This document shows positions 29,398 through 63,401 of a stretch of DNA of 64,000 nucleotides, piece after piece; within the stretch, counting starts at the first letter, position 1; the number at the start of each line of letters is the position of its first letter. A model generated the notes under the pieces. That model was given only the letters and a program-made list of their open reading frames with translations, had not been told where the DNA came from and did no database searches. Source of the stretch: Trypanosoma brucei (lineage: Eukaryota). The position numbers and the translations under genes were made by a program. The DNA lies in assembly GCA_000002445.1 (NCBI GenBank), contig CP000071.1, positions 1,024,001 through 1,088,000 of the forward strand, written 5' to 3'.

Positions 29398-29539
29398 AAG
29401 GGCCCGAACACAACAGAAAACGTCGTATTATTATTATATTTTACGGTTCAGCGAAGTTATTTTCAGATAAAAGTAAAAAAGGAACATGCTTCACGATAAA
29501 AATATTAACTGCTGAAATAATTTGATATACCCTCCACGT

Positions 29540-38759: not shown

Positions 38760-41060
38760 GAAAAAAATGAAGAGAAAATTTTGTTTTCTTCCTTGCCTAC
38801 CTCCTCCCCCCTTTTTGCTTACTTTCTATGTGTCCTAAATTAGTTTTGCAAGGTGAAGAACCTAGTGATTGATATGTTTCAATCTTTGTAAGGCAGGGTG
38901 ATGTCGTGCGAATGTATTTGTATGCGAAGGAATTATAGAAAGAAGAAACCAGAGAAAGAGAAAGAGGGAAAGAGAGAGAGAGAGACAAGAGGAAGTACAA
39001 TTAAAAATGACAGAAATAACATCAGAGAGAATGAAAGCAAAACAAAACAAAAAAGGAAGAATGCAGTGCGTGAAATTAAGTAAATAAAAAATGGGCACAC
39101 AATGCACGAGCAGACGCACACACATATAATAAAGATGGGTAGTAAACAGAGACAAATGCGATTCAAAATCGTAAGGGCATCAGTTAGGAGGGAGAGGGCA
39201 AGGATAAATAGACATAAAAAAGAAAATGCATGAGCCAGAAAAAAACGGCTGTTGCCAAGCGTGTGCATCCGCAAGGACGAAAGAAGTAGAACAAACCAGT
39301 TAGAGCAAAAACAACAACAGAAACGCAACAACAACAACACACACAAACACAAAAAAAACACATAAACTTCGGTAGGAACACCTTTTGCACGTATAAATAT
39401 ACTTATATATATAAATACATGCAACTTGATGAATGAAGCGGGAGAAAAAAGTAGAGAGAAAGAGGGAAACAATCACAGCATTAATGATAACAATAACAGC
39501 CGATGGCTAAGGTAAATAGAAATCCCCCTTCTCTTTCCTTCTTTTTCTCCCTTTTCACATACGCATGCACCTGAAGAATTGGTGTGATGACAGGAAACTA
39601 GTTCGATGCTAGAAAAGGGTGGTGGGGAAACTACAAGAGAAAGAAAAAAAAAGGGTAAAGGTATAACAAACAAGAAGCCTTCTCTATCTCATGTGCTTTT
39701 CTTTTTAAATTTTTTTGTATTCTATTTTAAATCTAAGTTACGTATATATTTATACATATATATATATAAATATATACGCATGCATTAAACTTTCCCCATT
39801 TTTTCCATTCCCTTCCCTTCCTCACAATCATTTCCTTCTCTGTCATTTCTTTCCCTTAAACACTCACTTTTACTCCTTTTTTTCTTTAAATAACAATAAT
39901 ATAATGGTATAAAAATACCAAATGTACGACGCAAGGTTATTGGACGTTTCTTCTAAGTACAAAAAAAAAAGACACAAAATAAAGTGGAGGCTTCGGTTCA
40001 CCAATTCGATTGAAACAAAGACGACAACAAAAAAAAAAGAAAAAAGAAACAAACTGTTACAAGCTATAGAAGGGACACGGGATGAGAACTGACGCTGATT
40101 AAAAAAAAAAAGGACAACATCAACGACAACAGAACAAAAACGTGATGGAATATGGCGTGTCAAATTAGACGGCAAAACAAACAATAACAGTAAAAACGGC
40201 AACACCAATAGTGAAAAAAAAAACAATTAGTGTCAAACAAAAAAAAAAAGAAAAAACGAAACGAAACTACGGCAACAAACAATAGTAATAATAATAGTAA
40301 TAATAACTTTCGCCTCAATTTCCTTCTTTCCTTAACTCACTTCCATTCATCCATTCATTCACTCATTCCCTTCGTCTTCTTCATTCTTCTTCAATTACTT
40401 TGCACGTGCGTGTGTACATGTATTTTTCTTCCTGCTTCCGCATTTGTGTGCTTGTTCGCCTTTTCTCCAAAAGCAAACAAAAAGAAGGGAGAGAGAGAGA
40501 GAGAGAGGGGGGGGGGGGGCGGGAAAGAAAAAAGAAAAAAAAACATATAGACGGATTTTTAAACTTTCGCCTTGTCTCTCCGTCTGTTCGACTTTCTGGT
40601 GTAAATGTTTCATTTCGTCATCTTTTCTTCACTCACTCACGCAACACAAATTCAAATACAAAAGTACAGATACCGTCACAGTTCAACCACGTCGCAAGTA
40701 AGCAAAGTAACGAAGAACGAAAAAAAAAAAGGGAGAAAGAAAAAAAAAATTACAACAATACGAAATGCCAAACAGATGAGGGTTAGAAGATGAACAACCA
40801 AGTGGCATCCAAGCAAACGGGTAACCAAGAGGCGGTTGTTCATATATATATATATATATGTGTGTGTATATATAAAGGAAAAAAGAGAACTAACCAATAA
40901 TAATCAAATTATTGTAATTGTAATAACAACAGCATCCGCAGCTGCAGGAAAAGGAAAAGAAAAAAAGTCCGGAAAAGAAAAGCAACAACAACAACGACGA
41001 CAACACAAAGCAGATGAAAACAACAACAATAACCAAAGTAGATATGGACAAGTAGGATTC
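38760..41060. repeat. Purine-rich (on the + strand) low-complexity intergenic tract with embedded (AG)n, (TA)n, (CAA)n and poly-G runs
   Basis: Visible compositional bias: runs such as agagaaagagaaagagggaaagagagagagagaga, (ta)n at about 40845-40866 and G13 at about 40507-40519. On the - coding strand these are polypyrimidine tracts, the UTR and processing signals for the MAPK and the secreted-protein gene. All ORFs here are low-complexity artefacts. Confidence 0.6.
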
Positions 41061-41069
41061 TTCACGAGG

Positions 41070-42185
41070 CTACGCGCCTTTCGGTATTTGGCTTGCAAGA
41101 TGTGGATTAAAGCTGCATATTTCATCCCAGAATGCCCTACGGAGGGAGTCAAGACTCATTTCCTGCATTTCATATGGCCACGCGAAGGATGTCGGACACA
41201 CCGGCTCGTCCACTTCATCATGCAACGGTGCCATGAATGGATGGCGAAGTAATTCAGCCGCTGATGGCCTTTTCCGCGGGTCAAGCTCCCACATTTGGCT
41301 GAGAAAATCAATTCCATCTGCACTTGTCAACCCGGGCACAAGTTTGCCCATGTCCAATTCGCCATCAGGAAGTTGATTTAACTTCTCCAACGCCTCTGCA
41401 CTCTCTACCATATCCCTTGGAGGCTTCCCAATATGTGTGCAAATGAGCCGCAGCTGATCAATCGTGTTTCGGCCCGGAAGGACTGGCTTGCGATTGTACA
41501 TTTCTGCCATAATGCAACCGACTGACCAAATGTCTACCGCGGTGTCGTAGTAACTGTTTTCTAGAAGCAGTTCCGGCGGTCGGTACCAGCGTGTAATGAC
41601 GTAGTCAGTCAAATCATGATGTGGGATAGTGACGCTACGGGAAAGACCGAAGTCAATAATCTTCAGCTCGCACGAGATGTCAGTGACTAGGTTGGCTGGT
41701 TTCAAGTCACGGTGTGCCACACCGGCACTATGTAAATATTTTAAACCCCGAAGTATTTGATAAATGAAGTACCGGACGTGAGTTTCCTCTAGCACCTGAC
41801 GCGAGCGAAGCACAACATTCATATCAACATCCTTCAGGGGCGTTACTATGTAAACATCACGGAATTCATTGTAGCCCTTCATGGGCGGCAATATATCCAT
41901 GACATGTAACAAATTCTCGTGCCTGAAGAAGCGCATCATCGCAACCTCACGCAGAACGCGCCTGCCATCATCCAAGTCACGGAATACCTCTCGGCACTTT
42001 TTTATCGATACCTTCTCCTGTGTTTCTTCATTCAAGCAACTGCACGCAATACCATAAGCTCCCATACCAAGTATTTTCAAAAGTGTGTACTTCCGTGGAA
42101 CCTCAAACTCGGATCCACCAACATTGTACACCTTAAAGCCCCCTACAATTGTAGGCTCGCACAACTCTTGATTACTTTTGTGCAT
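41070..42185 (-). CDS. Mitogen-activated protein kinase (TDY-type activation loop)
   Basis: Kinase subdomains are present: GxGxxG (GMGAYGIACS), VSIKK, HRDLKPANLV and DFGLSR. The activation loop reads TDYVITRWYRPPELL, which is the MAPK TxY dual-phosphorylation motif followed by the P+1 signature. A C-terminal CD-like region is also present. Confidence 0.8.
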   Translation of the reverse strand: MHKSNQELCEPTIVGGFKVYNVGGSEFEVPRKYTLLKILGMGAYGIACSCLNEETQEKVSIKKCREVFRDLDDGRRVLREVAMMRFFRHENLLHVMDILPPMKGYNEFRDVYIVTPLKDVDMNVVLRSRQVLEETHVRYFIYQILRGLKYLHSAGVAHRDLKPANLVTDISCELKIIDFGLSRSVTIPHHDLTDYVITRWYRPPELLLENSYYDTAVDIWSVGCIMAEMYNRKPVLPGRNTIDQLRLICTHIGKPPRDMVESAEALEKLNQLPDGELDMGKLVPGLTSADGIDFLSQMWELDPRKRPSAAELLRHPFMAPLHDEVDEPVCPTSFAWPYEMQEMSLDSLRRAFWDEICSFNPHLASQIPKGA

Positions 42186-42189
42186 TGCT

Positions 42190-44930
42190 TATCACGGTGA
42201 TGTTCCCCTCCTCTTCCCACAACCTAGTTCAACCTTTTCTTCTATTCTTTCCTTCACTCTATCCGACTCTTCTTTCTTCTTCTGTTTCAAAAAATACCTT
42301 TTTTTCTTACCCTTTAGCTTCTCCTCTTTTTGAAAAATGGGAAAATTAATAATTGTCCTTTATTTTTTTCTTCCCTCCGTCTCCGTTTCCTCCTCCTCCT
42401 TGGCTCGAAGTGTAACGCTTCCCCAAGCAGAAATAAGGCACCACAGTGTATAGAAGCAAACCGACAGCAAAATAAATAATAATAATGGTAATGATGATAA
42501 TGGCACGGCGGTTACCTTCTTCTATGTGCCTTTATTATCAGTTATTATTATTGTCGCGGTTGATGATGATGACGACGGTGATGTTATTATTTTTTTGTTC
42601 ACTCCCTTTTTGCTTGGGTTGTTGGCCCTCAGGATGTATGAGGAACGCAATCTAACTGTATGAAGATGCGAGTTTTTCGTGCCTTCGAAGCACTTCCTTC
42701 CTTTCTTCTCTGTTTTGCTTTCTCCTCAAGGTTGGCGATAATACTCTCCCTCTTTTTGTTTCTCTTTCCTCTCAAAATTTTTTGTAATGTGTCGGTACGT
42801 ACACGCTCACTATCTAAATCTTTATGGTGTGCGCTGCTACCGGCACCAATGACTTTGTATAAATATATACAAATAAATAAATATAAATATAAATATAAAT
42901 ATATATATGTGTACGCCTGTTTCTGTTTCTTAAGTTGTTGAAGGCCCTATGGTGAAGTCCTTTTTACACTCCCAATTTCTTACTCTTTTCCCTTTTTTTT
43001 CCCCCCTCCCTCTTAAAGGCCTCCTCTTCACTTTCCTTTTCCCCCCTTTCTTCTATTTTTTCGCCTGTAGCCCCTACCGCTACCCCTTCCGTGTTATTAT
43101 TTTCCGGCTTTGTTGAACTGCTCCGGTAGCCGCTTACTTAAGTGACGTCTTCCTTTTTCTTTTACTTTTACTTTTTTACTTTTTCTTCTTCACTTTCCCC
43201 TGCCCACTCCTTTTTCCTCGTGTAAATATAAATATTTCTTTGTTATTTTATTTTCCCCACCCCCTTTCCTTCTCTAATGATTTATACGGTGGTATCACTT
43301 TATTTTATTTTCTTCAGTCCTTTTGGTCACCGACTCACCGGGTTGCAGTCGCCAGCCAAACGTCACTCCGTTTCAGCTGTCTAATTTGCAGCAAACCAAT
43401 CAATCAACCCGTTAATTTTAGGGCAGTACCCGTTAAAAATTAAAAAAAAACCCTTTCCCCGTCACTTAGTTTGTAAGGCCGCCGTGATGGAGGACGGAGA
43501 GGGTTGCGTTGGCTTCTTTAAAACTCTTTTCTTTTTCTTTTTTTTGTTTTGTTTTATATTGCTATTTTTGTTTTAAAGTAGGGGTAAAAAAGAAAAAAAA
43601 GAGAAATGAGGGATACGTGTGAAGGGAACGAAAGAAAAGAAAAAGAAAAAAATTAAGAAGAATAGAGAAAAAGAAAAAGGGGTAAAACTAAAAGACTTTT
43701 GCTTTTTGTATTTCCTTCTTTCTTTTTATTCTCCTTTCCTTTACGCTATACATAAAACAATAAAAACAACAACAACAGCAACAATAAAAAGAAAAGGAGG
43801 TAAGAGAAGAGAGGAAATAGATGATAACCGGATATCAAAGTTTCAATTCGCAAGAGGAACAGAAGGAAGCATAAATACATATATATTCACACACACACAC
43901 ACGGAGAGAGAGAAAGAGAAAGGAGGTGGTGACACAAAATTCAACATAAGGGAAGCACAAATGAAGAAATTAAGTTACTTCGTGGCCAATGGTTGGTGAG
44001 GGAGAAAATGGTGGAATCGTTACGCTTTGGGATGAAAACAGACAAAACAAGGCAGAAAACAAAAAAAAAGGAGATGGAGCGGCGAAGGGTCAAATAAACA
44101 CACAAACACAAGCAACAAAAAAAAAAAAAGAATAAATAAGTAAATGAAAAGAAAAGGACGGAAGAAAAGGAAAATCACACAGTGATATTCCCACAACATT
44201 TGCCCCTCCTTTTCATTCCCCTATCCTTTCCCATAAGCACCGTGGCACATTTATGAATGCATCCATATCTATTTAATGCTCCTTTGCATAACTCCAACAT
44301 CTTCTCACCATTGGGATTATATTTCCTTTCCTTTTCCCTTTCCCTTTCCATTCCCCACATTTTTTCAAAATTTCCCCTTCTTTCCTGGCCTTTAGGCTTG
44401 CGCGCCTTCTTTTTTTTTTTCCCCCTTTTAACTCTCTCTCTCTCCATCTATGAATGCACTTCCTCCTCCATTCCCCTTTCTCTCCTTCACGCTAAATAAT
44501 AAACTGTCAAACAGTTATCAAAAAGTACCCGCAGCAGCACCAGCACGGGCAAAGGGAGAAGAACTATAGTGAACAACCTTCAACATGAACAGGTAAGAGA
44601 TGGAGGCAAGCCTGCAGAAGAAAAAAAAATAAACCAAGAAGGAAATACGCGCCGTGGGTGAGTACAGCCAAACCCATCCATAAGCATAAGATGTTTTTTT
44701 TTTAAAAAAATGTGTCACTACATATACGTATGTATATGTATCTCTATGCTAGTAAATATGAGCGTGAGTGGGAGGGATAAACCAAGAGGGAGAGGCGGCA
44801 AGAGCCAGCAGTCACTGATAACGGGAGATTCTAAACGGACTTTAAAGTACCTCTATTTGCGTTTCGTGCAGATAAAATAGAACTCTCTAAAGGAATGAGT
44901 CATATCGTCTTTTTCGCTCATCGCTCTCGG
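42190..44930. repeat. Low-complexity purine- or pyrimidine-biased intergenic tract between the MAPK and PIF1 genes
   Basis: Runs of cttt, ccct and aaag motifs, (AAATAT)n-like repeats at about 42880-42910, and poly-A and poly-T. No credible ORF. Confidence 0.5.
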
Positions 44931-47717
44931 TTATTCTTCCACTTCCCCTTCATACTCCCCATCACCCTCTAGTGCCTCTTCATCACCCTCTGTTCCATCA
45001 TCCTCAATCTCATTATCCAGTTCCTCCTCTTCTAGAACCGTGTAAAACTCCTTCGCTCTTGGACACGCATGGACGGAGGCATTGTTGAAGTCCAACAATC
45101 GGATATTATCCAGCCGTGTGCTACGACTAAGAGCCACATACGCCTGACCAGGAGAAAAGAAGCGATGGATTGCCACTTCCACGTGCGAAATTGTCAAACC
45201 TTGCGCCTTGTGAACCGTCATTGCCCATGCTTGGCGCAGGGGAAGTTGTGTACGCGTGGCAACGGGTTGATCCCCCATGTACCACTGATGCGAACTGGGT
45301 GATATGAAGGCGTAGACATGCTTTGGGAGACGTTTACTACCATTTGCGAACCCGCCATCTTCAACCGCACCACTGTCGGAGGATGTGTGGTTTCCCTCCC
45401 GTAGGTCCAACCTAACAATAGGTAAGCGCGTGAGACGAACGTGTTGCGGTGCAATGCCTCCCAAATACATCTCTAGGGGATGCACGGCATTCGCAGACTC
45501 AGTTTTGCCAAGACCAACAAGACGCAAGATGTCTCGGCAATGTGTGTTTCCATATACGCAGCCATAACTTGCGTCTTCAGGGCGGCGAATACCACGCTCA
45601 CGCAGGTAATAGAAAAGAGACTGACCAAGGGCGGTGTCGACACAGCGGAACGCATCTTGTAATGTAGGCAACCCTGCGCGCTCCAACAATTCTTGTCCAC
45701 GGGCCGAGGGGAAATGGCGTTCACGCGGAGCCCGAAGAACAAGTTCAACAAGCTCAAGCGGATGGAGAAAACCGACCACCTCACCAACGGACCCATTGAC
45801 TAGACCAAGTCGAAGCGAAATGTTCTGAAGTACCATCACTCGCGTACCAACCTTTAGTGCAAGATCTGTTGGAAGTGTGCTGTCCTCAAACCGTACCCAA
45901 GGTTGCGATGGTTGTGTACCTGTAGTTGTCTCTTCAGTCGTTTCAGGTTCAGTTTCATGAGTGCTGTAGGCATCATAAGCTCGGTACACTTGAAGGGGAC
46001 GCATTGTGTCTTCCTCCGTCACAGAATTAGCACCATTACTGCTGCCAGTCTGTTGTGAGGAACCGTCGTTTGGTGATGGATAAATTGGAAGGCCCTTGGG
46101 TTCGAGCGCGGCAAAATACTTTGCATTACGCATTTCCACCTCCTTGTTTGTTGCGCAGAGTCGCACGTGCCGATCTTTCTCTGCCGCTGCTGGCGTTGTC
46201 TCTGCGTCGGTAAGTGGTAGCACACCATCATTTCCGGCATCCTCATCCTTCTTTTTGCGTGACTTCGCGCTGGATTTCGAAGCAACAGTACGAGATAACA
46301 ATAGTTCGTATGACTCAGGTGACAGTGATCCGACTCGAAGCTCGTCAAGGACCTGCTGAAACGCCAAATCATCGTGCTGCCTGAATTTCTTATGAAGAAT
46401 GACGGTTATTAGATTCAACGAGGTCCATGTACTCGTCTCAAAGCAGTACTGTAGTTTGGACGGCGCCGGTGTCCCATCAGTTGGATCACCACCTTCTTGC
46501 GCTTCGGCATTTTCCTCCGTCTTTTGTTGTGGCTTATTGCGCGGTGGAATAGGCGGTAACTGCAGGAAGTCCCCACATAGAATTACCTGAATACCACCGA
46601 ATGGTTCATTACGACGGCGTATAGCGCGTGCAATCACATCTAACTTATCAAGTAGCAGGGGATCCATCATTGAAATCTCGTCGATGATGAGTGTTTGGCA
46701 GTAACGCCATCGACCAGCCGCACGCCTACTGCGGCGAACCCACTTTAATAACTGACGCGCATCCCCATCTCCAAACTTCACGCCGGCAAAACTATTCACA
46801 GTTGAGCCGCGAACATTGAGAGCGGCTACTCCAGTAGTTGCCGTCACATATACGCAGCGGCGTTTGTTGTGCCGAAGTTGGTAAACGATCTCGCGGATGA
46901 GAAGTGACTTTCCAGAGCCTGCCCCACCCGTTATGAATAAGTTGCGCCCCTTTAATGCAAGCCTTAGTGCGCGCTGTTGCTCTGGACTGAGTGATGTTAA
47001 AATGGGAAGTTGGCTATCAGCGTCAGCATCACTGAAGTGGGTTTGTCCCTCGCTAGCCCCCTCTGCTTTTCCCTGAGCCGATATCTTCGCCTCAGTACCC
47101 ACCGGTTGTGTGCGTTCAGCAACCCCTAACTTCGAGAGATATTCTTTATCATCCGTTACTTCAGTAGGTTCAGCGGCTGCTTTTGCTCGGAGGCGCTTCT
47201 TTTTCTCCTCCTCGCGCCGCAGAGCTTCCTCCTTCAACAGCTGCATCAGTTGCTTACTTTCCTCATCCACAAGTTTCTCATCGTCATCATCATCTATGGC
47301 AACGTCAGAAGCACCTCCTTTTCCCGGAGCACTTCCTTCTATACCATTGGCTCTTCTTGCAGTGTTAAACGCACTCGCTCCCACGGTTCGACCACTTCGC
47401 CGCTGCTTCGATTTGGTTACGGCAGCAGCTTTTGTTTTTCCACCTCCGACTTTCCGTCGCCTCGTCATGTGTTCCTCAGAAATCCGCGGCGGCTCAAGTG
47501 GCGGTGGTGGGGAGTCGATTTTAATGGCCGCTCGCCCGCGTTTCTCCACCGGTTCCGCCTTTGCAGTGCGGGAGCGGGCCGCAATGCCACTCACCAGCGG
47601 CGGTTCATTTGGTTGAGTGCTGCGGTTGAGGCGATTGCCGCATGTGGTGAAGTCAACGCGTTGAATCCGCAGTGCCACACGTGAGGGACGCCATACGGCG
47701 CTTAGACGGGAGAGCAT
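44931..47717 (-). CDS. PIF1-family 5'-3' DNA helicase, with a predicted N-terminal mitochondrial presequence and a long basic low-complexity N-terminal region
   Basis: Walker A LFITGGAGSGKSLLIREIV is present. The Pif1 family signature reads …DKLDVIARAIRRRNEPFGGIQVILCGDFLQLPPI. Motif III-like VYVTATTGVAALNV and the C-terminal AYVALSRSTRLDNIRLLDF are also present. The N-terminus, MLSRLSAVWRPSRVALRIQRV, is an amphipathic R-rich presequence. Trypanosomes encode several mitochondrial (kinetoplast) PIF1 paralogues. Confidence 0.8.
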   Translation of the reverse strand: MLSRLSAVWRPSRVALRIQRVDFTTCGNRLNRSTQPNEPPLVSGIAARSRTAKAEPVEKRGRAAIKIDSPPPPLEPPRISEEHMTRRRKVGGGKTKAAAVTKSKQRRSGRTVGASAFNTARRANGIEGSAPGKGGASDVAIDDDDDEKLVDEESKQLMQLLKEEALRREEEKKKRLRAKAAAEPTEVTDDKEYLSKLGVAERTQPVGTEAKISAQGKAEGASEGQTHFSDADADSQLPILTSLSPEQQRALRLALKGRNLFITGGAGSGKSLLIREIVYQLRHNKRRCVYVTATTGVAALNVRGSTVNSFAGVKFGDGDARQLLKWVRRSRRAAGRWRYCQTLIIDEISMMDPLLLDKLDVIARAIRRRNEPFGGIQVILCGDFLQLPPIPPRNKPQQKTEENAEAQEGGDPTDGTPAPSKLQYCFETSTWTSLNLITVILHKKFRQHDDLAFQQVLDELRVGSLSPESYELLLSRTVASKSSAKSRKKKDEDAGNDGVLPLTDAETTPAAAEKDRHVRLCATNKEVEMRNAKYFAALEPKGLPIYPSPNDGSSQQTGSSNGANSVTEEDTMRPLQVYRAYDAYSTHETEPETTEETTTGTQPSQPWVRFEDSTLPTDLALKVGTRVMVLQNISLRLGLVNGSVGEVVGFLHPLELVELVLRAPRERHFPSARGQELLERAGLPTLQDAFRCVDTALGQSLFYYLRERGIRRPEDASYGCVYGNTHCRDILRLVGLGKTESANAVHPLEMYLGGIAPQHVRLTRLPIVRLDLREGNHTSSDSGAVEDGGFANGSKRLPKHVYAFISPSSHQWYMGDQPVATRTQLPLRQAWAMTVHKAQGLTISHVEVAIHRFFSPGQAYVALSRSTRLDNIRLLDFNNASVHACPRAKEFYTVLEEEELDNEIEDDGTEGDEEALEGDGEYEGEVEE

Positions 47718-47719
47718 TT

Positions 47720-50700
47720 GCGTGTTTATTTAAAAACAACAAAAATTCAAATAGTTGATTCAGAAGTAGCCTAAAATTATTATTATTTTTTTTAAAAAAG
47801 AAAACAACGACAACCCCACCAACGGAAACAATGCGTGAGATCGGTGGAAGGACCAACGAGTAAAAAGGGGAAAAGTGTCAACAGTTTTGCGCCCTACCTA
47901 CGCGTAGCGGTTATGATCAGGCTGCCTTTGTGTGACGTGTTACTGCGTTATCACTGCTTATTGTTGTTCCTTTGGTTAGTGCAAAAAAGTAAAAGAAAAA
48001 GAAAAAGAGAAATTACCGTTGAAAAGTGCACACATACCAAGAGAGAGATGAGCCGTGCAGGTGCAGAAAGGTTCAACATTACAGAAGTATCAAATCATAA
48101 TATTTGTAGTTATACTTCACCCACCGTTATCTTCAATCATTCCCATGTTCCATTTCTCCACCAGCTCACGTCCTCTCTTCAGTTCTTTTCTGCGCTCCCC
48201 ATTCTTTTTTTCTTTTTTGGTTTTATTGAGGAAAGGAGGAATGGATGCGGTGATGCAATGACGAGCCGGTGGCGTCACAAACTGAAATCATTGCAACGCA
48301 CATGCACAGAGAAACACACACACGAAAAAAAAAGAAAAAAGGAGCCGAGAGAAAGAAATGAATGACCGAAAGCTGATGGGAGCGTCGAAGAAAAGAAAAA
48401 AAAGAAAGCTATACAAAAGGGGGAAAAAAAAACAAGAAACATAGGGGAACGAAAAAGAAGAAACCAGACTGGGGTTGCAGAAGCCGAATAAGGGGGAAAA
48501 AGAATAATGGGGAATTAGAGGAAGAGGATCCGGTACGCGGCAAGACAGAGGCCACATACAAAACGGAATCAAACGCCGTTAAATTAAAGAAGCAGAGAGA
48601 GAGAGGTAAAGAGAAAACAAAACAGACGAAAAAAAAAAAGAAAAGAAGAAAGGGGTTACGGCGGAACAACTCCACCAGAGTTGACGCTGTTTTCTCGATA
48701 TTGCTTTCCCCATCATAAATCCTCATTGATGCTTTTCTTTACTTCTTTCGCTTCATTTCGTGTCTTCTATTTTTTTCCCCCCCCCCCTCCTCTCTCCATC
48801 AGTGACGCGTATAAATATGTATGTATACAAAAAATATAAACATACATGAAATGAAACAGACAGCCAACTAAGAAAAATCTGTTTTAATGCTGCCGTAGAC
48901 AAGCGCACACGCGACACCCAAACGGGGAAGAAAAAAAAAAAAGAGAAATGGAGAAACCTTCATTAAAAGTTTCGCTGAGGGCGAAGCAGTGGATGATAAG
49001 ACGAGGACACAAACACAAAAACACACAAGAAGGGGGGGGGGGAAAAAAAGGAGAACTAAAAGAAGACACAACATTAAATATTTTAAATATATACAAATAC
49101 ACCAAATAACCGGATCCTTCACCACTCCCAATGTGACGAGAGGAAGAAAATGCAGAGTTGGGTGAAAACAGATATAAAAAGAAACAAAAACAAAAACAAG
49201 AAACGAAGCTGATGAGTACATAAAGATACAAAAAGTAAAAAAGAAAAAAAAAGAAAAAGAGGGAAAGGGAGAGAGAAGCGGTACTTGTGCAAAACAACAA
49301 CAACATCAACAAAACACACACACACACACACAAAAGGAAGCAAAAAAACAAAAAAACAAACTCCCCCAATAAAATAGCAACAATCCGAACTTGGCGTAAA
49401 AAACAAAAAAAACGCCAGAGACAAGATGGCTACGAAATATACGCCCCAAAACCGCATGCATATTGACATAAACTTCCCTCCCTCACCATCCATTAAAAAA
49501 AAAAACCCCTTCTTCAAACTGTAATTGCTCGTCACGTTAATAACATCAAAGGAGAGGAAAGAAAGCGGAGGGGGAATGCACCATGAGGAAGCAGATGCAC
49601 ACCAATGCATAAATAAAATTAACATAAAATATACCGCAAAAAATGCTGCAAATATAAAATTTGTGATGCATGAACGCGTATATGATATCTCTTCTCTATT
49701 GTTTTCTCATATCTCTCCGCCATCATTCGTCCACACTCCCATCACATAATGCCAAACGGAAGTTACGATAGCAATAACAAAAATGATAGTGAGAAGGAAA
49801 GAAGAGTAAAGTTTTTTTTCTTTTAAACAAAACAAAACAAAATGTATTGTTGCACCCGTTTTCTCTCCCCCTTTTATTTACCTTTTTTTTTTCACACCAC
49901 ATTTTTTTTTCCTCGAACCCGATGGCACAATCCGTGAATTCAATTTCAGCGAATATCTCTACAATTTTTTTCTGTTTACTGATCCGATTGGTATTACGCT
50001 ACAGCTTTTAAAGCTATTTATATTAGTTTCGGTTTCCTTTCCTTTCTTTTTTTTTTTTCATTACTTATTTCTTATTTCCACCTTTCCTGTTCACACATGT
50101 TCCCTGCCATCCCCAAATTATCAAATAAAACAATACGAAAAAAACAAACAAACAAACAAAAAGTACGGCGGGACAGCAGGGATTGCAGTAAAATGGAGGG
50201 TGGCGGGGACTGATGGCGTTTGAATTAAGTCCCCACTTCCGACTTAATCATGACTGTACAACGTAATTTTTTTTTTCCTTTAGAGAAAGAGACGAAGCAG
50301 CGAGAAGACGAGAAGGAAAAACACACACACACACACACACACACAGGGCAAAAACAGAGCAGTAATGAGATACATGATACAACATAACAAAATTATATAT
50401 ATATATATATATATAATTACTTATTTACCTATATATACCGATATCTATAAATGTGTGGTATATATATGTATACAAGTATATACGAAAAATAAAAATAAAA
50501 ACAAAAACAAATCAACAGGAATCCCTAAAAAAAACCCATCTGCTTCTCCTACCTTTCCTCTTCGTACAATACACAAACAACACACAATGCATCAACGTAC
50601 ACAATTTAAGCAAAAACTTTCCGCACTTCCATCAGTGTAATATATATTGCCATTACTGGTATTTTTGTTTATTTTCAGTCCCTTACACACAGTATTGTTT

Positions 50701-52640: not shown

Positions 52641-54110
52641 TCATTGCAAGCTGTGTAACATCGGTGCGCGTTTCAGCCGTGCAGCAACCTCCTCCTGTTG
52701 CCGCGCACGGTGCACGCGCTGTTCAAACGACTTGACCGTGGAAAGAAAATTTGGAAGCTCACGCACTGCGACGTCGGCTCTGTCGCGGTGAAGGAAGAGA
52801 TGGGACTGAATTTGCGCTACACTCAGTTTGCCAGGCAGCAGCTGCAAGGCGAACGCTTCGTGGAGAGACTCCGGTGCCTCGGGAAAGAATTTACAAAATA
52901 GTTTCCGTGCTTGCTCACGCGATATCAGACCAATTTCGACCTTCAAATCACAGCGACCGGGCCGGATGAGGGCTTCATCCAGTCGCTCCACGTGATTTGT
53001 TGTCATAAACACGATTCGACCTTCCTGAGCGGCGACACCATCGAGTGCGTTGAGCAGTCCACTCATCGTAATGTGACTATCGGCGCTAAATGCCCGATCA
53101 ATGTCTTCCAGTAGCACAATAGAGCGGATTGGGGCGGTGTTAAGCAACTGGACGAGTGTGTCGTCGCTCAATCCGCGGCCAGAGAGACTCAAGGGACAAA
53201 TGGAAAGTCGTAACTCGCCAGCAAGCGCCATCACCACGCTGCTCTTGCCGCAACCAGGAGGACCGTGAAGCAGGTAACCGCGGCGATACGGAACGCCTAA
53301 ATCTTCATAATACCTGCTTGACTGAAGAAACAGTTTCGCATCCTCCAAAAGCATGTCCCCAATCCCATCATTAAGCACTACAGAATTCAGCGGGCGCCGA
53401 CGGCGTGGCTCTTGCCGCACCCAACGACCACCAGCGTTCTGATAAATGACCGTATGATCGCTGTTTCGCATGGAGGTGAGCTCCCGCGCCTCCTCGAGAA
53501 TCTCACGCATAAAAGTCGAGGATAGACCCAATGTAGTCAGTTCCATTGTCTCAAGAACGTCAGTGCCCATTGCCTGGGTTTCCACACGGCGCCGTTGCAG
53601 TACAATTGGTCGGTGTTTGTACCAGAACCAGTGCCGAATGTTGGTACAGGGGGCATACATACACTCATGCGATGACTCGTCGTTGGAGTATATGGTGGTG
53701 TTGCGCGTGGTGACGTTCACCTGTTGAACCTGGAACGCGGGCTTGCTCGAGAGCCACCGCACCATCCACCCGTAGCTTTCGTCCTGACTTGTCACCTCCA
53801 TTGAAATGACGAACCGCCGGCGCATGACGGATTTGAACATTGTGGACACTGAACGTGTGGCGGCACCAGTGAATGTCAGCAAATAAAGCCCGACGCCCGC
53901 ACTAAAAAACGGATTTTGCAGCAGGTTCCCCAATGTTCGACTAAGGACGCCACCTTCCCCCCTCCAGCGCTCCGGTACAAGAGCGGCAAGTTCAGCTAAT
54001 GCCACATCGGCACTCACTGCGGTGGAGGAGGAAGAACCGCACACGGCGGGGTTACTTCCATCGGCGAGAGCAGCAAGATTCATAGCGAGACGACAGCAGA
54101 TACAACGCAA
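52641..54110 (-). CDS. BCS1: BCS1-like mitochondrial AAA-ATPase chaperone
   Basis: An N-terminal TM segment (FFSAGVGLYLLTFTGAA) is present. A BCS1 N-domain follows. The AAA module has Walker A GYLLHGPPGCGKSSVVMALAG, Walker B SIVLLEDIDRAF, and MTTNHVERLDEALIRPGRCD (sensor and arginine finger). This is the canonical BCS1 arrangement. Confidence 0.75.
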   Translation of the reverse strand: MRCICCRLAMNLAALADGSNPAVCGSSSSTAVSADVALAELAALVPERWRGEGGVLSRTLGNLLQNPFFSAGVGLYLLTFTGAATRSVSTMFKSVMRRRFVISMEVTSQDESYGWMVRWLSSKPAFQVQQVNVTTRNTTIYSNDESSHECMYAPCTNIRHWFWYKHRPIVLQRRRVETQAMGTDVLETMELTTLGLSSTFMREILEEARELTSMRNSDHTVIYQNAGGRWVRQEPRRRRPLNSVVLNDGIGDMLLEDAKLFLQSSRYYEDLGVPYRRGYLLHGPPGCGKSSVVMALAGELRLSICPLSLSGRGLSDDTLVQLLNTAPIRSIVLLEDIDRAFSADSHITMSGLLNALDGVAAQEGRIVFMTTNHVERLDEALIRPGRCDLKVEIGLISREQARKLFCKFFPEAPESLHEAFALQLLPGKLSVAQIQSHLFLHRDRADVAVRELPNFLSTVKSFEQRVHRARQQEEVAARLKRAPMLHSLQ

Positions 54111-54978: not shown

Positions 54979-56937
54979 CTATGACGGGACAGGAGAGGCT
55001 TCTGATGCACGAGAGGGACTTTCCACAGTAGTGTTCATAAAGGCAAGTCGGTTTGCCACAATGTTCGATGCCATATGCCGCCGCTTAAGGGCACTCAAAA
55101 GGACGTCCCGCAGCGGTGGTGTTGCAACCTTCTCCCAGTCCACTTCGTCCCTCACTCCCCGATGCTCTTCCGTTGTCCCATCTTCATTACCCTCCTGGCA
55201 AGTTGGCGCAGTGTAATCGTCATCCATGTCTTGGTCATCGCTATACAAGCCATACGACGCGGCACGCTTCCGTCGTGGCCATGTTGGTGCAAAGAATGCC
55301 GGGAGCCACATGTGCGCAAAGGCTGCCACCAAAAACGGCATTGTGTCAAAAAATCGGCAGAACTCTTCATAACTTATGTGTGAGCGGCGCATCATGTTCA
55401 ACGGTATGACTGTTTTCTGGTGGGGTAACAAGGATGCTGCTTTAACACTCTTCCTATTCTTCCTCCCCTTTAATTGCGAGCGGATGTACGCCTGCTCTTC
55501 CTCTTGATGTAACACATCCAAGGAATCCCTTAGTGCCTTCACGATACTCGGCGACAATACGCTTTCCGGCTCCTCACAGGACTCCCGGCCGTCCCGCCGT
55601 AACTGAGTCAGGGCAGACTTGTGGATGTAATCGTCGGTCTCCAAAACACTAAAACAAAGTTTCCGAATCACATCCTTCAACTCCGCACCATTGACTAAGG
55701 CATCAAAACCAGCAAGCAGTTCACGGACATGGGCTTCTGGAGATTTCTCTCGCTGACTCGTCTCATTCACCACCGGTGCGGGGATGTTAACACCCGGAAT
55801 AGGAAATGTCTGGTTACCGCGATTACCGGCAAGCACCGGACTCATTTTGGCAACTGACATGTTCGATGAAGAGGTTTGCCCTGCTCCACTGCCCTCTATT
55901 GTGCGGTGTAATGACGCGTGGTGGAGCTGAGCTGCCTTTAGGGGGGAGAGACTTCGCACTCCACTACTAGCAGCAGCAGTGTTATGTGACGTTTCAAGAC
56001 GACCCACTGCGTTGACTCCAGACTCACTCATGGAAGATGATGGGTGGGCAACTGAGAAAAAATTCTCGGCAGCCTCATCATCCCTTACTTCGAACGGTGC
56101 TTGCCTGAGCATATCGAGAAATGCATCGAGTGTTACAATCCCACTGGAATCCGCCACGGTCAGTAGTGCTGACTGCAGAAGCCGGAGGTTCGGTGCGGGT
56201 TTTCCTTCTTCCACCACCTCTTGCTTCTTTTTCTTTTTCTTGCCACCGCGGTTCTTCCTACTTGGGGTTCCCAGCGACTGCGATCGTGCCCCGGTTCTCG
56301 TTGGGGAATTCCGCGCTGCTGCTGCTGCAGTGGCTGCCGCAACTCTTGACTGCCGCTCTTCTTCCTCCAGCTTTCGCACTAGCGCCTCCGGATTTTGCTT
56401 GTAGTAGGCTGCTATGAAGTAATCGTTAATGTCCTGCACGACCCGTCTATGGGCGAACTTGGGCAGGGATTCCAGTATCATTTTTTCCTTCGCCTTCGTC
56501 ATTGGTCCCTGTAGCACTGGTAGAGCAACCGCTTTCCCCTGTTGTTCATTAAAGCGCGAATTCGGTGGAGGAAGTCGAAATAAAGTTTTATAGTAGTCGG
56601 TCATGGAGATACGACGCTCCATCATAATCTTCCGCTGCTCTCGTTCCTTCGTCTGCTGCAGGCTCTCCCGTCGGCGCACATGCCAAAGCACACGGTCCTC
56701 TACCGCGGTGTTTCGCAGCCGTTCCACATTTGGACAGGGAGAAATGTTTGACGCCACCACACGCTCTGCCGTCGATGACATCCGCGCAGTGGAAGCCTTC
56801 GCATCCATCGAGAGAGAGGTTGCACTCCTCGTTCCAAATGTGGTTGTTGACATCTTCTCGCCTGAAAATATGCTTCCCGTACGCCCCTTGCTCTGGCGGC
56901 TTCCCTCAAGTGCATCGCTCACACCCACAGAACTCAT
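54979..56937 (-). CDS. Hypothetical protein (652 aa) with a central basic K-rich patch. No recognised domain.
   Basis: Long ORF with normal composition. It contains RKNRGGKKKKKKQEVVEEGKP (NLS-like) and a conserved-looking C-terminal hydrophobic core (…FCRFFDTMPFLVAAFAHMWLPAFFAPTWP…). Confidence 0.5.
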   Translation of the reverse strand: MSSVGVSDALEGSRQSKGRTGSIFSGEKMSTTTFGTRSATSLSMDAKASTARMSSTAERVVASNISPCPNVERLRNTAVEDRVLWHVRRRESLQQTKEREQRKIMMERRISMTDYYKTLFRLPPPNSRFNEQQGKAVALPVLQGPMTKAKEKMILESLPKFAHRRVVQDINDYFIAAYYKQNPEALVRKLEEEERQSRVAAATAAAAARNSPTRTGARSQSLGTPSRKNRGGKKKKKKQEVVEEGKPAPNLRLLQSALLTVADSSGIVTLDAFLDMLRQAPFEVRDDEAAENFFSVAHPSSSMSESGVNAVGRLETSHNTAAASSGVRSLSPLKAAQLHHASLHRTIEGSGAGQTSSSNMSVAKMSPVLAGNRGNQTFPIPGVNIPAPVVNETSQREKSPEAHVRELLAGFDALVNGAELKDVIRKLCFSVLETDDYIHKSALTQLRRDGRESCEEPESVLSPSIVKALRDSLDVLHQEEEQAYIRSQLKGRKNRKSVKAASLLPHQKTVIPLNMMRRSHISYEEFCRFFDTMPFLVAAFAHMWLPAFFAPTWPRRKRAASYGLYSDDQDMDDDYTAPTCQEGNEDGTTEEHRGVRDEVDWEKVATPPLRDVLLSALKRRHMASNIVANRLAFMNTTVESPSRASEASPVPS

Positions 56938-58669: not shown

Positions 58670-60031
58670 CTAAAGGTAAACCACGGCCTCGCATGGGTAA
58701 CACTCGTTCACTGAATCGTAGCCTAGAGCGCACAACTCAACTTTATCAATGAATACAGGGCTCTCACATAGCGAAACATTTGCAAAACGCCGTAGAACCT
58801 CCGATGCATTAAACGGTAAATTTTTTCCGCCGCTTTGTTGTTTCCCTTCACCCGTACGCCACTTCGTGTTCATCAGCGTGACGTGAAGTAACTTACTCTC
58901 CGACACACGTGGGTCATCACATATGAGTTCCCCAAAACTGCTGTGAACGATGTCCTGCAATGCTCTAACCGTCGCGGTGGATTCCTCGTCTGCCAATCCC
59001 ATATACAACACATTTGCCTTCTGCACATGTTGACCTCGGCTAGTCATCACGTGCAGTCCACCTAAGCGAATGGGAATTCCCACACTGTCATCAGGCCCTG
59101 CTTTACCTTTATGTAGGTGTTGCTGTTGCTTCCACCCATAGATCTGGTCTTGCAGTACCTGCATACATTCTACAGCCAGTGCAACATCTTCACATGTCGG
59201 AAGGGATAACATGAGGAGGGTTAAATGCGTGCGTGGTGCACTAGTAAATATCTCCTCCGTTACACCGTTTGCAGGATCAACACAACACTGTTTCATCTCC
59301 CACAAAAGTGCCTCCGCCCTTTCGCCAAACACTTTTACCTTTCCGATGGGTAATGCAATGAAGTGAGTATACGGTTTCTTGTAGAAATGCTTTCCGACCC
59401 TCCCACCGAACGTCGAACCAACGTTTTTTTCACCGCTTTCGTGGGTTTCCACAGCATATTTCCTCTTGGAGGCGCTTCCCTCCCCTACCACCTCACGAGA
59501 ATCGGGAGCGCTGTCAACCACTTCTGCACTCGCAGACTCATTTCCGCGTGCATGACCTTCAGTGGCAAATATTCTGTAGCAACGATTCTGAGGGAAACGG
59601 ACAACACGAATGGAGGAATCATGCGATATGCCGTCATCTCTGCAATTATGAACAGGAACGACGTGCATTCCACTGGTTCCACTGACATTTTTCTTATCAA
59701 CACTGGCACCAACAGACGCCATAACAGACGGGGACACGGCAAGACAGTAACCGCAAATAAGACGGGCGTCATAACTAACCTTACCGCAAGAGTTGCAGGT
59801 CCAACCACACCCATTTGTTAGGCACTTGCAGCTCCTTTTTCCGTTGCATTCCTTCTCATTTCTTTTATTAGTGGATTCATTTGAACCGTAACGCGCCGCT
59901 AATCGGTTTCGGGCCATATTGTCGAGTGCCTTCTCACGGTGCACCCACTCCACCGCAGCCGCGCGCTCAGTGACATCGGTAGAAATCGACGAAAGAGCCC
60001 TCCACGACATATCCTCCGACTTATTATACAA
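58670..60031 (-). CDS. Hypothetical protein with a Cys-rich zinc-finger-like N-terminal segment and a C-terminal 2H-phosphoesterase-like domain (AKAP7/ASCC1/LigT superfamily)
   Basis: Two H-x-T-x motifs flanked by hydrophobics (…RTHLTLLML… and …LLHVTLMNT…) lie about 110 aa apart. This is the diagnostic tandem HxT/S pattern of the 2H fold. Upstream, CKCLTNGCGWTCNSCGKVSYDARLICGYC resembles a RanBP2/C4-type zinc finger. Confidence 0.4.
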   Translation of the reverse strand: MYNKSEDMSWRALSSISTDVTERAAAVEWVHREKALDNMARNRLAARYGSNESTNKRNEKECNGKRSCKCLTNGCGWTCNSCGKVSYDARLICGYCLAVSPSVMASVGASVDKKNVSGTSGMHVVPVHNCRDDGISHDSSIRVVRFPQNRCYRIFATEGHARGNESASAEVVDSAPDSREVVGEGSASKRKYAVETHESGEKNVGSTFGGRVGKHFYKKPYTHFIALPIGKVKVFGERAEALLWEMKQCCVDPANGVTEEIFTSAPRTHLTLLMLSLPTCEDVALAVECMQVLQDQIYGWKQQQHLHKGKAGPDDSVGIPIRLGGLHVMTSRGQHVQKANVLYMGLADEESTATVRALQDIVHSSFGELICDDPRVSESKLLHVTLMNTKWRTGEGKQQSGGKNLPFNASEVLRRFANVSLCESPVFIDKVELCALGYDSVNECYPCEAVVYL

Positions 60032-61475
60032 TCCACTTGACAGTCCCCCAAAAGAAAATCAAATACGAACACCATCATAGGAAAGTGATATGCACAGAAG
60101 CCCCAAAAGAAAAGAAGATCCATCAACAACTTGAAGAACAACACGAGCCACCAACACCACAAAAAGATTATTCAATGAACAGAACGCCCCCCCCCCACTA
60201 TGCGACACAACACTAGTAATAAAACTTACGACATTCCTTAATGGATTCGCGGGCCACCTATTACTGATGTCGACTCGCGCACAGTAATACGAGAGTAAAA
60301 TTATTAATAAGGTAAAATTTGCATCTGAGGTCGAGGCCAGGCAAGTAAGACGGGGAAAAAATGCAGGAATGGAGAAGGTAGAAAGTATGGAGACACACAT
60401 TCCACAGTGTAGTACTAACACGTACAGATGTCCATGCAGAACAGATCGCTCTCCCGCTTCACTCCCTGAGGCTCGGTCGACCGAAAATACATAAATGCAG
60501 GTCAAACCCCCTAAACTGAGTGCATCGGACCATTGAATAATATCATTATTTCCTTACTTCGACCCATTCTGTTTGACCCTTACCCCATACAAAATCCAAA
60601 AGAAAAACAAAAAAGGTAAGTGAAGTGGAAAAATACTGCGGCACCTAATCATGGGCCCAGAATTATTTAATATATACCAAATTTTTATGAAAATGATTTC
60701 CTAGAAACGACTTGGACAACGCCTTCAGCGACACCTCGCGAGGAAGAAAAAAGTAACAAACTCTTCCCCACTCTGCCTTATATTTTATTACAGCTCCTCA
60801 CGGATGCGAAACGAACGGTAAACAACACAGTTATAATAGGTTAAGGAAAAATTGACGACCATTTTGTCACCAACTGATTTCTTCGAAGAAGCGATTTAAA
60901 ATATGCACCCGTGTGCATCGGAATCACGTAAAATATGGTTAAGATAATGAACTCTTCTGATTATTTGTTTAGAATACTAAATACTGTAAACAAATTACCG
61001 AAATAATCCACTAGACAGTGAACAACATCGTGATAAGACGCCGGCGTCGTAAGTACATCCTACGACCGCTACCCACAGGGTATATTGAAACAACATATCA
61101 ATATGTAAAAAAAAAATATTTGTAACCATCCCCACGAAAAAAAAACAGTAATATTAACAAAAACGTTTTTCTTTAGACCTTCATGTTAAAAAAAATATTA
61201 ATAACAAAAGTAACTTTGAACGTCCAGAGAGCAGTATCAGAAATCCTAACGCTTCTACATGTACTTACAAAGATACCTATCACACACACACACACACACA
61301 CACGTATGCCATTGAAGAGCGTAGGAAGGAAGAGGTTGCGATGGAAGGGGCGTGTCACTAAACATGTAAAAAAAAATGGTCACCGCAGAAAAAAAAAACG
61401 ATATAGAACTCCCATTTGTAAGCCGCAATGATGGATCGATTCAGATATTGGTGATGGAAGGGTTTCGATATGGTT

Positions 61476-63401
61476 CTAATTGGCTGTGGGTTCCCGCCGT
61501 CTGGGAGAATCATTAGAGGGGGCATGAACATCCTCCGCCTTCTTTGTAATAGCTTTGCCGTTTTCGTCAAGAACATCACATATACGTGCCGCAGGTATCA
61601 GTAAAAACACAAGAGGAATGCTGATGAGTGGAGTGCCAAAGTGACCAAGAAGTAGAAGCCACTTCACATTACTGAAGTCGCATGGACCCACCGTAATGTC
61701 TGATTGCACATTCCATACGTATTCCATCAAAAGCCATCCAAGTGTGTTGGAAACGGAACGGCCAAAATGCGCACATCCTGCAAGTACCGCATACACCATA
61801 CTTTCAGACCCACGGGGACAGAGCCTCGAAATGAGCATTACAGTTGGCATGAAGTGCATCATGTAGCACACCTGCTGTATAATTTGGTCACCAAGAACGA
61901 ATACAACGTGATCGCTAACATACGGACGGTTCCATCGCTCCACAATGATTATATCAAAGATACTCGAAACTATCTCAATCAAAGTTGTTACGATGAATGT
62001 TAGGCGATAGCTGCGCTTTGAGAATACGTATCTGAATAACGTCACACCAATAACACCACCCATAGTCCCAATCACGTTACCCACAGTGTTGTAGTAAAAG
62101 TATGAAAAGTTAGGACCACCAGGGAAACAATCGGGGGTCGCCATGAAGACATTGTCCATTGCGCCACGAAGTTGGATGTACGTGACCCTCGAGATGAATG
62201 TGAACATATTTGCCTTCGCGATCACAAGTGGAAGGGCAACGAAACCGAGTCCACAGAGTGTAAATGACGCCACAACACTGGTTATTAGCAGCTGCAACCT
62301 TGTGCCAAGGACTGTCACGAGAACCATACCGATGGCGCCAAGTGTGAGAAGCATGCAGTAAAACACAACCTTCTTGTTGCGAGCAAACACTTCTCGATTC
62401 ACTTCAAAGGCACCACAGCAACAAGGTAGTATCCGTGCTCCGCCCTCACCCACTTCCTCGGTATCCGATGGATTGTCCAGTGAGCCACTTGTTGCTTCGC
62501 TCCCCTGTAACCTCACGGCGTCGGCTTCATGCTCCAGCTTCTTTTCGCGAATAATCTTCAGGTCGTACGCACGTTCCTCTCGGTTCTTCCGTTCACCATA
62601 CCAATTCAGTATGAAGAATATCGTCGGCACCAACTGCATCCCAGCAGAGATAAACACAGCCACTCGCTGCAACCTCTTATCGGTAAGTGGTCCTACAATG
62701 GAGGACGCAACAAGGGAGCCAACCAAAAGGCACCACCAAACCCAACTCACAAGCGATGGGCCCGCCAATGGGACGCGGCGAATCAAGCGACTGTAATGCC
62801 CTTGTGTGAGGATATCAAGGTTAGCAACTGTGAAGGTAATGACAAAAACAAGGAAGCCAGCCACCGGTACATACGACAACTCTCCGGGCAGTGAACCGTA
62901 CACAATAGCGAGGGTGGAACCCACCACACAGGATAGAGCGAGGTACCATCGCTTCGTGTACCCAAATAACGCAAAGAGGTCACTGAACATAGCTGCAAAC
63001 GGCTTCACTGCGTAACCCAACGACGACATACCACCCATCAGTTGGTAAAGCTTTGCATCAGCACCAAAGGTGTAGGTAAACATTGGAAAAAGTGAGGATC
63101 GAATGATGTTGTCAGCAATTCCTTTGCCGAAGAGCTCGCAGAAACCAAGGGCGAAAACAAACTTCGGTCCGAACGCTTCCACAGCAGTGCCGAGTACGGG
63201 AATGCTCCACACGCATGGCAGCTTTCGGAACAAGGCCCTTGCGTCAGGGTGTACAGGACGAGCATCCATTGTTTCCTCTGCAGAGAGTTTGTGAGTTGTA
63301 CACTCAGCTTCGTGAGCTTGGGGTGCGGAATGTTGAGGTGGTTGGTCCTGGCATGCGTTCGGTGACGTGGTCATTGCTGGTACTCGAATATGTTCCCACA
63401 A
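61476..63401 (-). CDS. Folate/biopterin transporter (FBT/BT1 family) multi-pass membrane protein
   Basis: At least 12 hydrophobic helices are predicted. The N-terminal region contains FALGFCELFGKGIADNIIRSSLFPMF…YQLMGGMSSLGYAVKPFAAMFSDLFALFGYTKRWYLAL. This matches the conserved BT1-family block (…LGFSQ…KGLAD…P…SD…GYRRRPY). A central hydrophilic loop and a C-terminal six-helix bundle follow. Trypanosome FBT genes occur in arrays. Confidence 0.6.
   Translation of the reverse strand: MWEHIRVPAMTTSPNACQDQPPQHSAPQAHEAECTTHKLSAEETMDARPVHPDARALFRKLPCVWSIPVLGTAVEAFGPKFVFALGFCELFGKGIADNIIRSSLFPMFTYTFGADAKLYQLMGGMSSLGYAVKPFAAMFSDLFALFGYTKRWYLALSCVVGSTLAIVYGSLPGELSYVPVAGFLVFVITFTVANLDILTQGHYSRLIRRVPLAGPSLVSWVWWCLLVGSLVASSIVGPLTDKRLQRVAVFISAGMQLVPTIFFILNWYGERKNREERAYDLKIIREKKLEHEADAVRLQGSEATSGSLDNPSDTEEVGEGGARILPCCCGAFEVNREVFARNKKVVFYCMLLTLGAIGMVLVTVLGTRLQLLITSVVASFTLCGLGFVALPLVIAKANMFTFISRVTYIQLRGAMDNVFMATPDCFPGGPNFSYFYYNTVGNVIGTMGGVIGVTLFRYVFSKRSYRLTFIVTTLIEIVSSIFDIIIVERWNRPYVSDHVVFVLGDQIIQQVCYMMHFMPTVMLISRLCPRGSESMVYAVLAGCAHFGRSVSNTLGWLLMEYVWNVQSDITVGPCDFSNVKWLLLLGHFGTPLISIPLVFLLIPAARICDVLDENGKAITKKAEDVHAPSNDSPRRREPTAN

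Follow-up and report, generated by a model that had tools for sequence, protein, structure and literature searches.

A probable ASCC1 orthologue of Trypanosoma brucei with a zinc ribbon and a disordered linker in place of the KH domain

To which branch of the 2H phosphoesterase superfamily does a conserved protein encoded on chromosome 8 of Trypanosoma brucei belong, and what does its combination with a cysteine-rich finger suggest about its partners? The window analysed here, which is the whole stretch of 64,000 nucleotides covering positions 1,024,001 to 1,088,000 of the forward strand of contig CP000071.1 (assembly GCA_000002445.1), contains a minus-strand open reading frame at window positions 58670..60031, confirmed as 453 amino acids when counted from TTG. 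A prediction made from the DNA sequence alone (the original prediction) had described its product as a Cys4 finger joined to a 2H-phosphoesterase-like domain, and public records label the protein AKAP7-like. Comparison of profiles, predicted structure and domain architecture points instead to ASCC1, a subunit of a complex for RNA/DNA damage and ribosome rescue: the protein is probably an ASCC1 orthologue that has lost the usual RNA-binding KH domain, with the finger standing in for it.

The TTG at 60031 counts as a start only in the bacterial translation table, of which it is an artefact; the true eukaryotic start is the earliest ATG, at 60010-60008 on the minus strand, which gives a protein of 446 amino acids. 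Polypyrimidine tracts and AG dinucleotides, read directly from the sequence upstream of this ATG, would be typical of a trans-splice acceptor region. The 446-residue protein matches XP_847192.1/AAZ13126.1/UniRef100_Q580Y1 of T. brucei brucei TREU927 exactly, annotated under XP_847192.1/Q580Y1 as 'hypothetical protein, conserved'/'A-kinase anchor protein 7-like phosphoesterase domain-containing protein', and the copies in T. equiperdum carry the label 'AKAP7 2'5' RNA ligase-like domain containing protein'. Orthologues in T. congolense, T. vivax, T. grayi, T. theileri and T. rangeli show 37-44% identity. Residues are numbered on the 446-residue protein, and model quality is given as the predicted local distance difference test (pLDDT) of an AlphaFold2 model built from a 47-sequence alignment, used in place of an earlier model from 8 sequences that was poor outside the 2H domain. 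The features of the gene are, in window positions:

58670..60010, minus strand: coding sequence, 446 amino acids plus stop codon (58670-58672), exact database match
59888..59974, minus strand: N-terminal alpha-helix, V-x-R-E-K-x2-D-x7-L-x3-Y-G, residues 13-41, pLDDT 79-93
59729..59803, minus strand: Cys4 zinc ribbon, W-x-C-x2-C-x3-S-x-D-x-R-x2-C-x2-C-L-x3-P, residues 70-94, pLDDT 81-90
59561..59620, minus strand: beta-hairpin ('beta pin'), D-SSIRVVRFPQ-N-R-C-Y-R-IF, residues 131-150, with the ASCC1 hallmark G/N-R-x-Y-R
59381..59560, minus strand: poorly conserved linker, predicted disordered, residues 151-210, at the position of the KH domain in relatives, pLDDT 32-48
58673..59380, minus strand: 2H phosphoesterase domain of AKAP7_NLS/ASCC1 type, residues 211-446, opening with the junction motif K-K-P-Y-T-H-F-I-A-L-P
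59216..59227, minus strand: first catalytic motif H262-L-T264-L; H262 invariant in 47 of 47 sequences, T264 in at least 90% with Ser in the exceptions
58874..58885, minus strand: second catalytic motif H376-V-T378-L, followed by the ASCC1-like M-N-T-K-W-R; H376, T378 and N381 each in at least 90% of the 47 sequences

The two HxTx motifs, HLTL and HVTL, which had been predicted to lie about 110 residues apart, are the only H-hydrophobic-[ST]-hydrophobic matches in the protein and are separated by 114 residues (H262 and H376). Among 20,000 shuffled versions of the protein at least two such motifs occur in 2.4% and a pair 70-130 residues apart in 0.5%, while the pattern CxxC-x8-14-CxxC arises in 0.7% of 20,000 shuffles; the HxT and Cys motifs by themselves are therefore merely suggestive, and the profile and fold evidence is decisive. 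The Pfam family AKAP7_NLS (PF10469) matches residues 214-444 at E=9.3e-21 to 9.7e-21, scoring 75 bits against a gathering cut-off of 24.4 and spanning profile positions 1-206 of 208. The AlphaFold2 model shows the bilobed alpha+beta 2H fold with a pLDDT of 92-98 over residues 211-446, and in a Foldseek search of the PDB every match at E<=1e-3 is a 2H protein, headed by ASCC1 (4e-13 to 2e-12; TM score 0.79 to human ASCC1), followed by AKAP18 (~1e-10) and the T. brucei mitoribosomal mS64 (1e-8), then by LigT together with archaeal proteins resembling 2'-5' ligases (1e-7 to 1e-4) and finally Usb1. Both His and both Thr/Ser residues are kept in every full-length orthologue examined. Judged by sequence and predicted fold, the protein is thus a genuine member of the 2H phosphoesterase superfamily with an intact catalytic tetrad, and on this point the original prediction held throughout: in the superfamily it named, in the profile match and fold by which it proposed to be checked, and in the conservation of the catalytic residues.

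Within the superfamily, the 2H domain resembles ASCC1 more than it does the other members of AKAP7_NLS. A profile of eight Trypanosoma orthologues searched against all PDB sequences retrieves ASCC1 of Alvinella at E=5.6e-13 and human ASCC1 at 8.4e-8, and no AKAP18 chain at E<=10, and the T. brucei protein is 20-24% identical to ASCC1 versus 14-16% to AKAP18. With ASCC1 it has in common the junction [KR][KR]xP[FY]THF and the signature HxTxMNTxxR after the second His (compare PMC11214414), the second HxT aligning with LHVTVMNT in Alvinella and LHATVMNT in human ASCC1; the Lys that in animals stands two residues ahead of this His is shifted, animals having K-L-H and T. brucei K-L-L-H. Both AKAP7 and ASCC1 had been named as candidate relatives in the original prediction, and ASCC1 turned out to be the right one.

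How, then, does a protein without a KH domain connect to ASCC1? An exhaustive search of 1.84 billion representatives with the Trypanosoma profile gave 524 matches, the best 150 of which were sorted by motif and with a local KH hidden Markov model (HMM); a repeated, word-indexed search with the trypanosome alignment returned the same seven proteins only. The top ~40 of the 524 matches have finger and 2H domain in common, and the next tier combines finger, KH and 2H. Group A, from Trypanosoma, Leptomonas pyrrhocoris and other assemblies, has an N-terminal helix and the Cys4 finger, followed by a hairpin that is short and conserved, a linker of low complexity and the 2H domain. In group B, which comprises the free-living prokinetoplastid Apiculatamorpha spiralis and many metagenomic sequences, the N-terminus of group A is followed by a Pfam-detected KH domain ahead of the 2H domain; the A. 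spiralis member is tagged K18666 ASCC1 by its source, and a group B profile finds the ASCC1 proteins of animals (Branchiostoma, Vanessa, Eumeta) with E values of 1e-60 to 1e-40. Group C consists of proteins of 340-400 amino acids with the canonical ASCC1 architecture of KH and 2H. In the 47-sequence alignment, which covers all three groups (20 members of group A), AKAP7_NLS is found in all 47 members, KH_1 in 27, namely all members of groups B and C and none of the 20 of group A, and Zn_ribbon_RanBP in 13 (best E=2.5e-6). The architectures form a graded series from beta pin, KH and 2H in animals through finger, beta pin, KH and 2H in the prokinetoplastid and environmental sequences to finger, beta pin, disordered linker and 2H in trypanosomatids.

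Compared with canonical ASCC1, the T. brucei protein thus retains the C-terminal AKAP7_NLS-type 2H domain with two HxT motifs, the junction and HxTxMNTxxR signatures and an N-terminal GRxYR beta pin, lacks the KH domain, in the place of which it has a 60-residue disordered linker, and possesses in addition an N-terminal helix and a Cys4 RanBP2-like zinc ribbon. The homologues with finger, KH and 2H (P0045 of A. spiralis and the environmental P0023, P0027, P0031 and P0169) share with it the helix at the N-terminus, the beta pin and the 2H domain and have a zinc ribbon homologous to its own, but keep the Pfam-detected KH domain and the canonical RanBP2 signature, whereas the T. brucei protein has no KH and Ser for Asn. 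Two environmental contigs from groundwater and other metagenomes (L001 and L002, with P0039) carry finger, KH and 2H genes among dense, same-strand, apparently intronless genes, a packing compatible with a kinetoplastid- or diplonemid-like genome.

The beta pin, too, runs through the entire series. Between finger and linker, the Trypanosoma proteins have VRVLxFPHGRCYRI in common, the T. brucei version being IRVVRFPQNRCYRIF (residues 134-148), and canonical ASCC1 has G-R-x-Y-R after a hydrophobic strand at its extreme N-terminus, for example LLWIDGRCYRKN in Branchiostoma and LIWIEGRCYRVN in Vanessa. In the 47 sequences, which range from trypanosomes to animals including Branchiostoma and Vanessa, R143 and R146 are invariant and Y145 is conserved in at least 90%. 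An HMM built from 34 canonical KH-2H N-termini only places its best match at the homologous position in 38 of the 39 group A and B proteins, and scores 5.2 bits on T. brucei against 1.7 bits for the best of 780 shuffled controls. The AlphaFold2 model folds strands 134-139 and 143-148 into a two-stranded hairpin (pLDDT 80-85). Exactly such an element is described in the structural study of ASCC1 from 2024. In human ASCC1, the beta pin, according to prediction, tethers the protein to the helicase ASCC3 (PMC11214414).

The N-terminal helix motif is, by alignment consensus, common to the finger-bearing relatives and absent from animal ASCC1. Behind it, the T. brucei finger reads W70-T-C72-N-S-C75-x10-C86-G-Y-C89, and its four Cys (C72, C75, C86 and C89), the Trp and the S-x-D-x-R core are kept in all full-length Trypanosoma orthologues. 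The predicted Cys4 finger is accordingly conserved, the first Cys of the 'CGW' with which it had been drawn not being so. An HMM from trypanosomatid fingers only recognises 18 of 18 N-terminal fingers of group B at 7-36 bits (best of 760 shuffles, 7.6 bits); these show the textbook RanBP2 signature W-x-C-x2-C-x3-N-[FY]-x2-R-x2-C-x2-C, and several match PF00641 at E=1e-3 to 2.5e-6, under the gathering score. The T. brucei finger, with a weak match to the zf-ChsH2 zinc ribbon in Pfam (E=0.036), agrees in its Trp, its four Cys and their W-x-C-x2-C-x10-C-x2-C spacing with the signature W-x-C-x2-4-C-x3-N-x6-C-x2-C of RanBP2-type fingers (PF00641; the RNA-binding ZRANB2/FUS type and the ubiquitin-binding NZF type), lacks the Asn, which is Ser in trypanosomatids, and would be a divergent RanBP2-type zinc ribbon, itself below PF00641 detection, homologous to the RanBP2-type fingers of free-living relatives. 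The gene model of the T. grayi orthologue (P0003, DQ04_10991030) begins at MSVDARHVCGCC, midway through the zinc finger; the N-terminal part, with the helix and the first CxxC, has probably been mis-annotated or cut off.

Elsewhere in the Euglenozoa the finger is placed differently. The diplonemid Artemidia motanka (P0175) has beta pin, KH and 2H with a RanBP2 finger (WTCPNINCGASNFASRSKCHKC, residues 390-411) in the loop after the second HxT, as if a finger of the same type had been placed there independently; this separately inserted C-x4-C finger is not matched by the trypanosomatid-finger HMM. Euglena gracilis (P0176) and Euglena longa (P0052) have KH and 2H and no finger, and the E. gracilis protein contains also an RRM (PF00076), a further swap or addition of an RNA-binding module in the ASCC1 family. 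As placement of the finger varies in this way, the N-terminal finger looks like an addition of the kinetoplastid lineage.

Several observations weigh against orthology with ASCC1 and replacement of KH by the finger. The structural study of ASCC1 treats the KH domain as defining (PMC11214414), and no trace of it was recovered in T. brucei: KH_1 gives no Pfam match at E<=10, the local KH HMM finds no match in T. brucei and only a few trypanosomatid-type sequences at E>1 and at inconsistent positions, the group A linker, compared by hhalign with a KH alignment of 84 sequences, gives a probability of 0.0 (positive control 99.2%), and residues 153-205 of the T. brucei protein are predicted disordered in the AlphaFold2 model. 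The T. brucei finger has Ser for the canonical RanBP2 Asn and no Pfam match to PF00641; the beta-pin match, taken alone, is short and weak; the tethering of the pin to ASCC3 is an AlphaFold-multimer prediction only (PMC11214414). As for activity, human and Alvinella ASCC1 are inactive on 2-5A, cGAMP, 2',3'-cAMP and 3',5'-cAMP, and no substrate has been found for either (PMC11214414), so that catalysis in the ASCC1 clade is unproven. In two finger-bearing proteins (P0033 and P0036) hhalign still picks up the C-terminal half of KH weakly (P=1e-4 and 1e-3), which suggests a progressive decay of the domain. As KH is described as defining, the protein is best classed as a variant derived from ASCC1 rather than a canonical member.

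Could the public label nevertheless be right, the protein being an AKAP7 (AKAP18)-type 2',5'-oligoadenylate phosphodiesterase or PKA-anchoring scaffold? This is extremely improbable given that profile and identity favour ASCC1 over AKAP18, that the ASCC1-specific beta pin and HxTxMNT signature are present, and that KH-bearing intermediates connect the protein to ASCC1. The central domain of AKAP7/AKAP18 gamma/delta (PDB 2VFK, 5JJ2) gives no profile match at E<=10 at 15% identity, and AKAP7 has neither beta pin nor finger; AKAP7 proper possesses an amphipathic PKA-anchoring helix that binds the PKA regulatory subunit, which would not be a feature of the T. brucei protein, and trypanosomes are not known to have an OAS/RNase L pathway. 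Very unlikely, too, is a stand-alone enzyme for RNA-end healing (a 2',3'-cyclic phosphodiesterase or ligase-like activity) in tRNA splicing or mitochondrial RNA editing, even though the catalytic motifs are intact and the 2H fold is common to LigT, the CPDase domain of tRNA ligase and Usb1. The link to RNA editing and tRNA splicing that had originally been suggested gained no support, the family affinity pointing to the ASCC/ASC-1 complex.

The 2H domain might also be a non-catalytic scaffold or nucleotide-binding module as in mS64, the protein then being purely an adaptor. This is improbable, as both His and both Thr/Ser residues are conserved in ~47 sequences from kinetoplastids to animals, which is rare for inert domains. 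Identity with the T. brucei mitoribosomal protein mS64 itself (PDB 6HIV/6HIW chain DQ), a structural ribosomal component, was considered and rejected (446 versus 256 amino acids, 16-17% identity and no sequence-level match to the T. brucei chain). With a similarly low probability the zinc ribbon would be no RNA binder and instead an NZF-like binder of ubiquitin or protein that brings the phosphoesterase to targets marked with ubiquitin, stalled ribosomes for example. Some fingers of the RanBP2/NZF class do bind ubiquitin, the binding dipeptide of NZF fingers being T-F, and an aromatic residue follows the first CxxC in the fingers of relatives. The dipeptide is absent, however, with G-K in T. 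brucei and G-[FY] in relatives, and the finger persists exactly where KH is lost, which fits a nucleic-acid-binding substitute. The ASCC/RQT pathway, for its part, is ubiquitin-driven (PMC7447978, PMC10076317), as recruitment to ubiquitinated targets would have it.

If the protein is an ASCC1 orthologue, a mechanism can be proposed. The beta pin would, by analogy to the human model, dock the protein onto a dual-cassette helicase of ASCC3/Slh1 type. By comparison of architectures, kinetoplastids seem to have gained the N-terminal helix and the RanBP2-type zinc ribbon, and trypanosomatids later lost KH, leaving a disordered linker; the zinc ribbon would have taken over the role of KH in recognition of substrate or partner. 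The 2H domain may then have as its substrate an end derived from RNA, a phosphodiester or a 2',3'-cyclic phosphate, as might arise in helicase-coupled handling of RNA/DNA damage or of stalled ribosomes. That trypanosomatids possess a natural 'KH-swap' ASCC1, which has kept nothing but beta pin and catalytic 2H domain and recognises its target by the RanBP2-type zinc ribbon, is a tentative proposal and, in this complete form, rather doubtful. ASCC1 has no homologue in yeast and is dispensable for splitting of collided ribosomes in human cells (PMC7447978); RQT apparently works without ASCC1, whose role is instead in the repair of alkylation damage, alongside ASCC3, ASCC2 and ALKBH3 (PMC10076317). 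A literature search for ASCC1, ASCC3 or RQT in trypanosomes gave nothing relevant.

With respect to the public record, the TriTrypDB identifier is probably Tb927.8.3600 or Tb927.8.3610; a literature search with these two identifiers found no paper. Tb927.8.3590 is improbable, as the isoelectric point of 9.95 given in the literature (a single mention) disagrees with the 7.8 computed here. Two related database entries are misleading. A 56-residue JGI/IMG fragment (P0010) in the 90%-identity cluster of the T. brucei protein is named 'chaperonin GroEL', a name that is almost certainly wrong, and a predicted protein of 3985 amino acids (P0020) with the finger (~residue 3058) and both HxT motifs (residues 3365 and 3512) is probably a run-on gene model joining neighbouring genes of a polycistron.

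The gene sits in a minus-strand polycistron and an Rfam scan of the locus finds no RNA family. The neighbours have unrelated functions, which is no surprise given how trypanosome genes are ordered:

61476-63401, minus strand: BT1 folate/biopterin transporter
54979-56937, minus strand: protein of 652 amino acids, no named function
52641-54110, minus strand: BCS1-like AAA ATPase
44931-47717, minus strand: PIF1 helicase
41070-42185, minus strand: protein kinase
35272-38304, minus strand: protein of 1010 amino acids, no named function
33497-34732, minus strand: NAD-dependent glycerol-3-phosphate dehydrogenase

Farther along the window, 27656-29398 and 29539-31281 form a 100% inverted repeat of 1743 nucleotides per arm with a spacer of 140 nucleotides, each arm carrying a tRNA-Cys(GCA) gene (29326-29397, minus strand; 29540-29611, plus strand). 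The repeat lies exactly at a convergent strand-switch, with plus-strand genes up to 24728 and minus-strand genes from 33497, and could be a genuine palindrome at an RNA polymerase II termination zone or an assembly artefact. Stretches of low GC content (0.37-0.42) at 48001-50000, 6001-8000, 38001-44000 and 60001-62000, most with a strong AT skew (up to +0.32), presumably represent long intergenic or untranslated tracts between coding regions.

Public annotation already records the 2H domain for exactly this protein. In the literature that could be searched, nothing was found on its orthology with ASCC1, on its retention of the beta pin, on a finger of RanBP2 type or on trypanosomatids having lost KH, nor did a literature search retrieve published work on an ASCC/RQT-type pathway in kinetoplastids. 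The conserved beta pin, the missing KH domain and the non-ATG start of the reading frame are points that the original prediction had missed. Overall, the advance on a known family is modest but real. In humans, loss of the ASCC1 gene leads to severe neuromuscular and bone disease.

Against this background, the misleading 'AKAP7-like' label can be replaced by a concrete hypothesis, namely that the protein is a subunit of a helicase complex of ASCC/RQT type; were an ASCC3/Slh1 helicase to carry it, the clearance of stalled ribosomes or damaged RNA would be coupled to the processing of a particular RNA end. Most eukaryotes examined have KH, a free-living kinetoplastid and environmental sequences related to it have KH alongside the finger, and trypanosomatids have the finger alone. 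The lineage suggests that beta pin and catalytic 2H domain are the conserved core of ASCC1 and that the RNA-binding module is exchangeable. This series sharpens ideas on the purpose of the accessory domains, for which the trypanosome offers a genetically tractable test organism.

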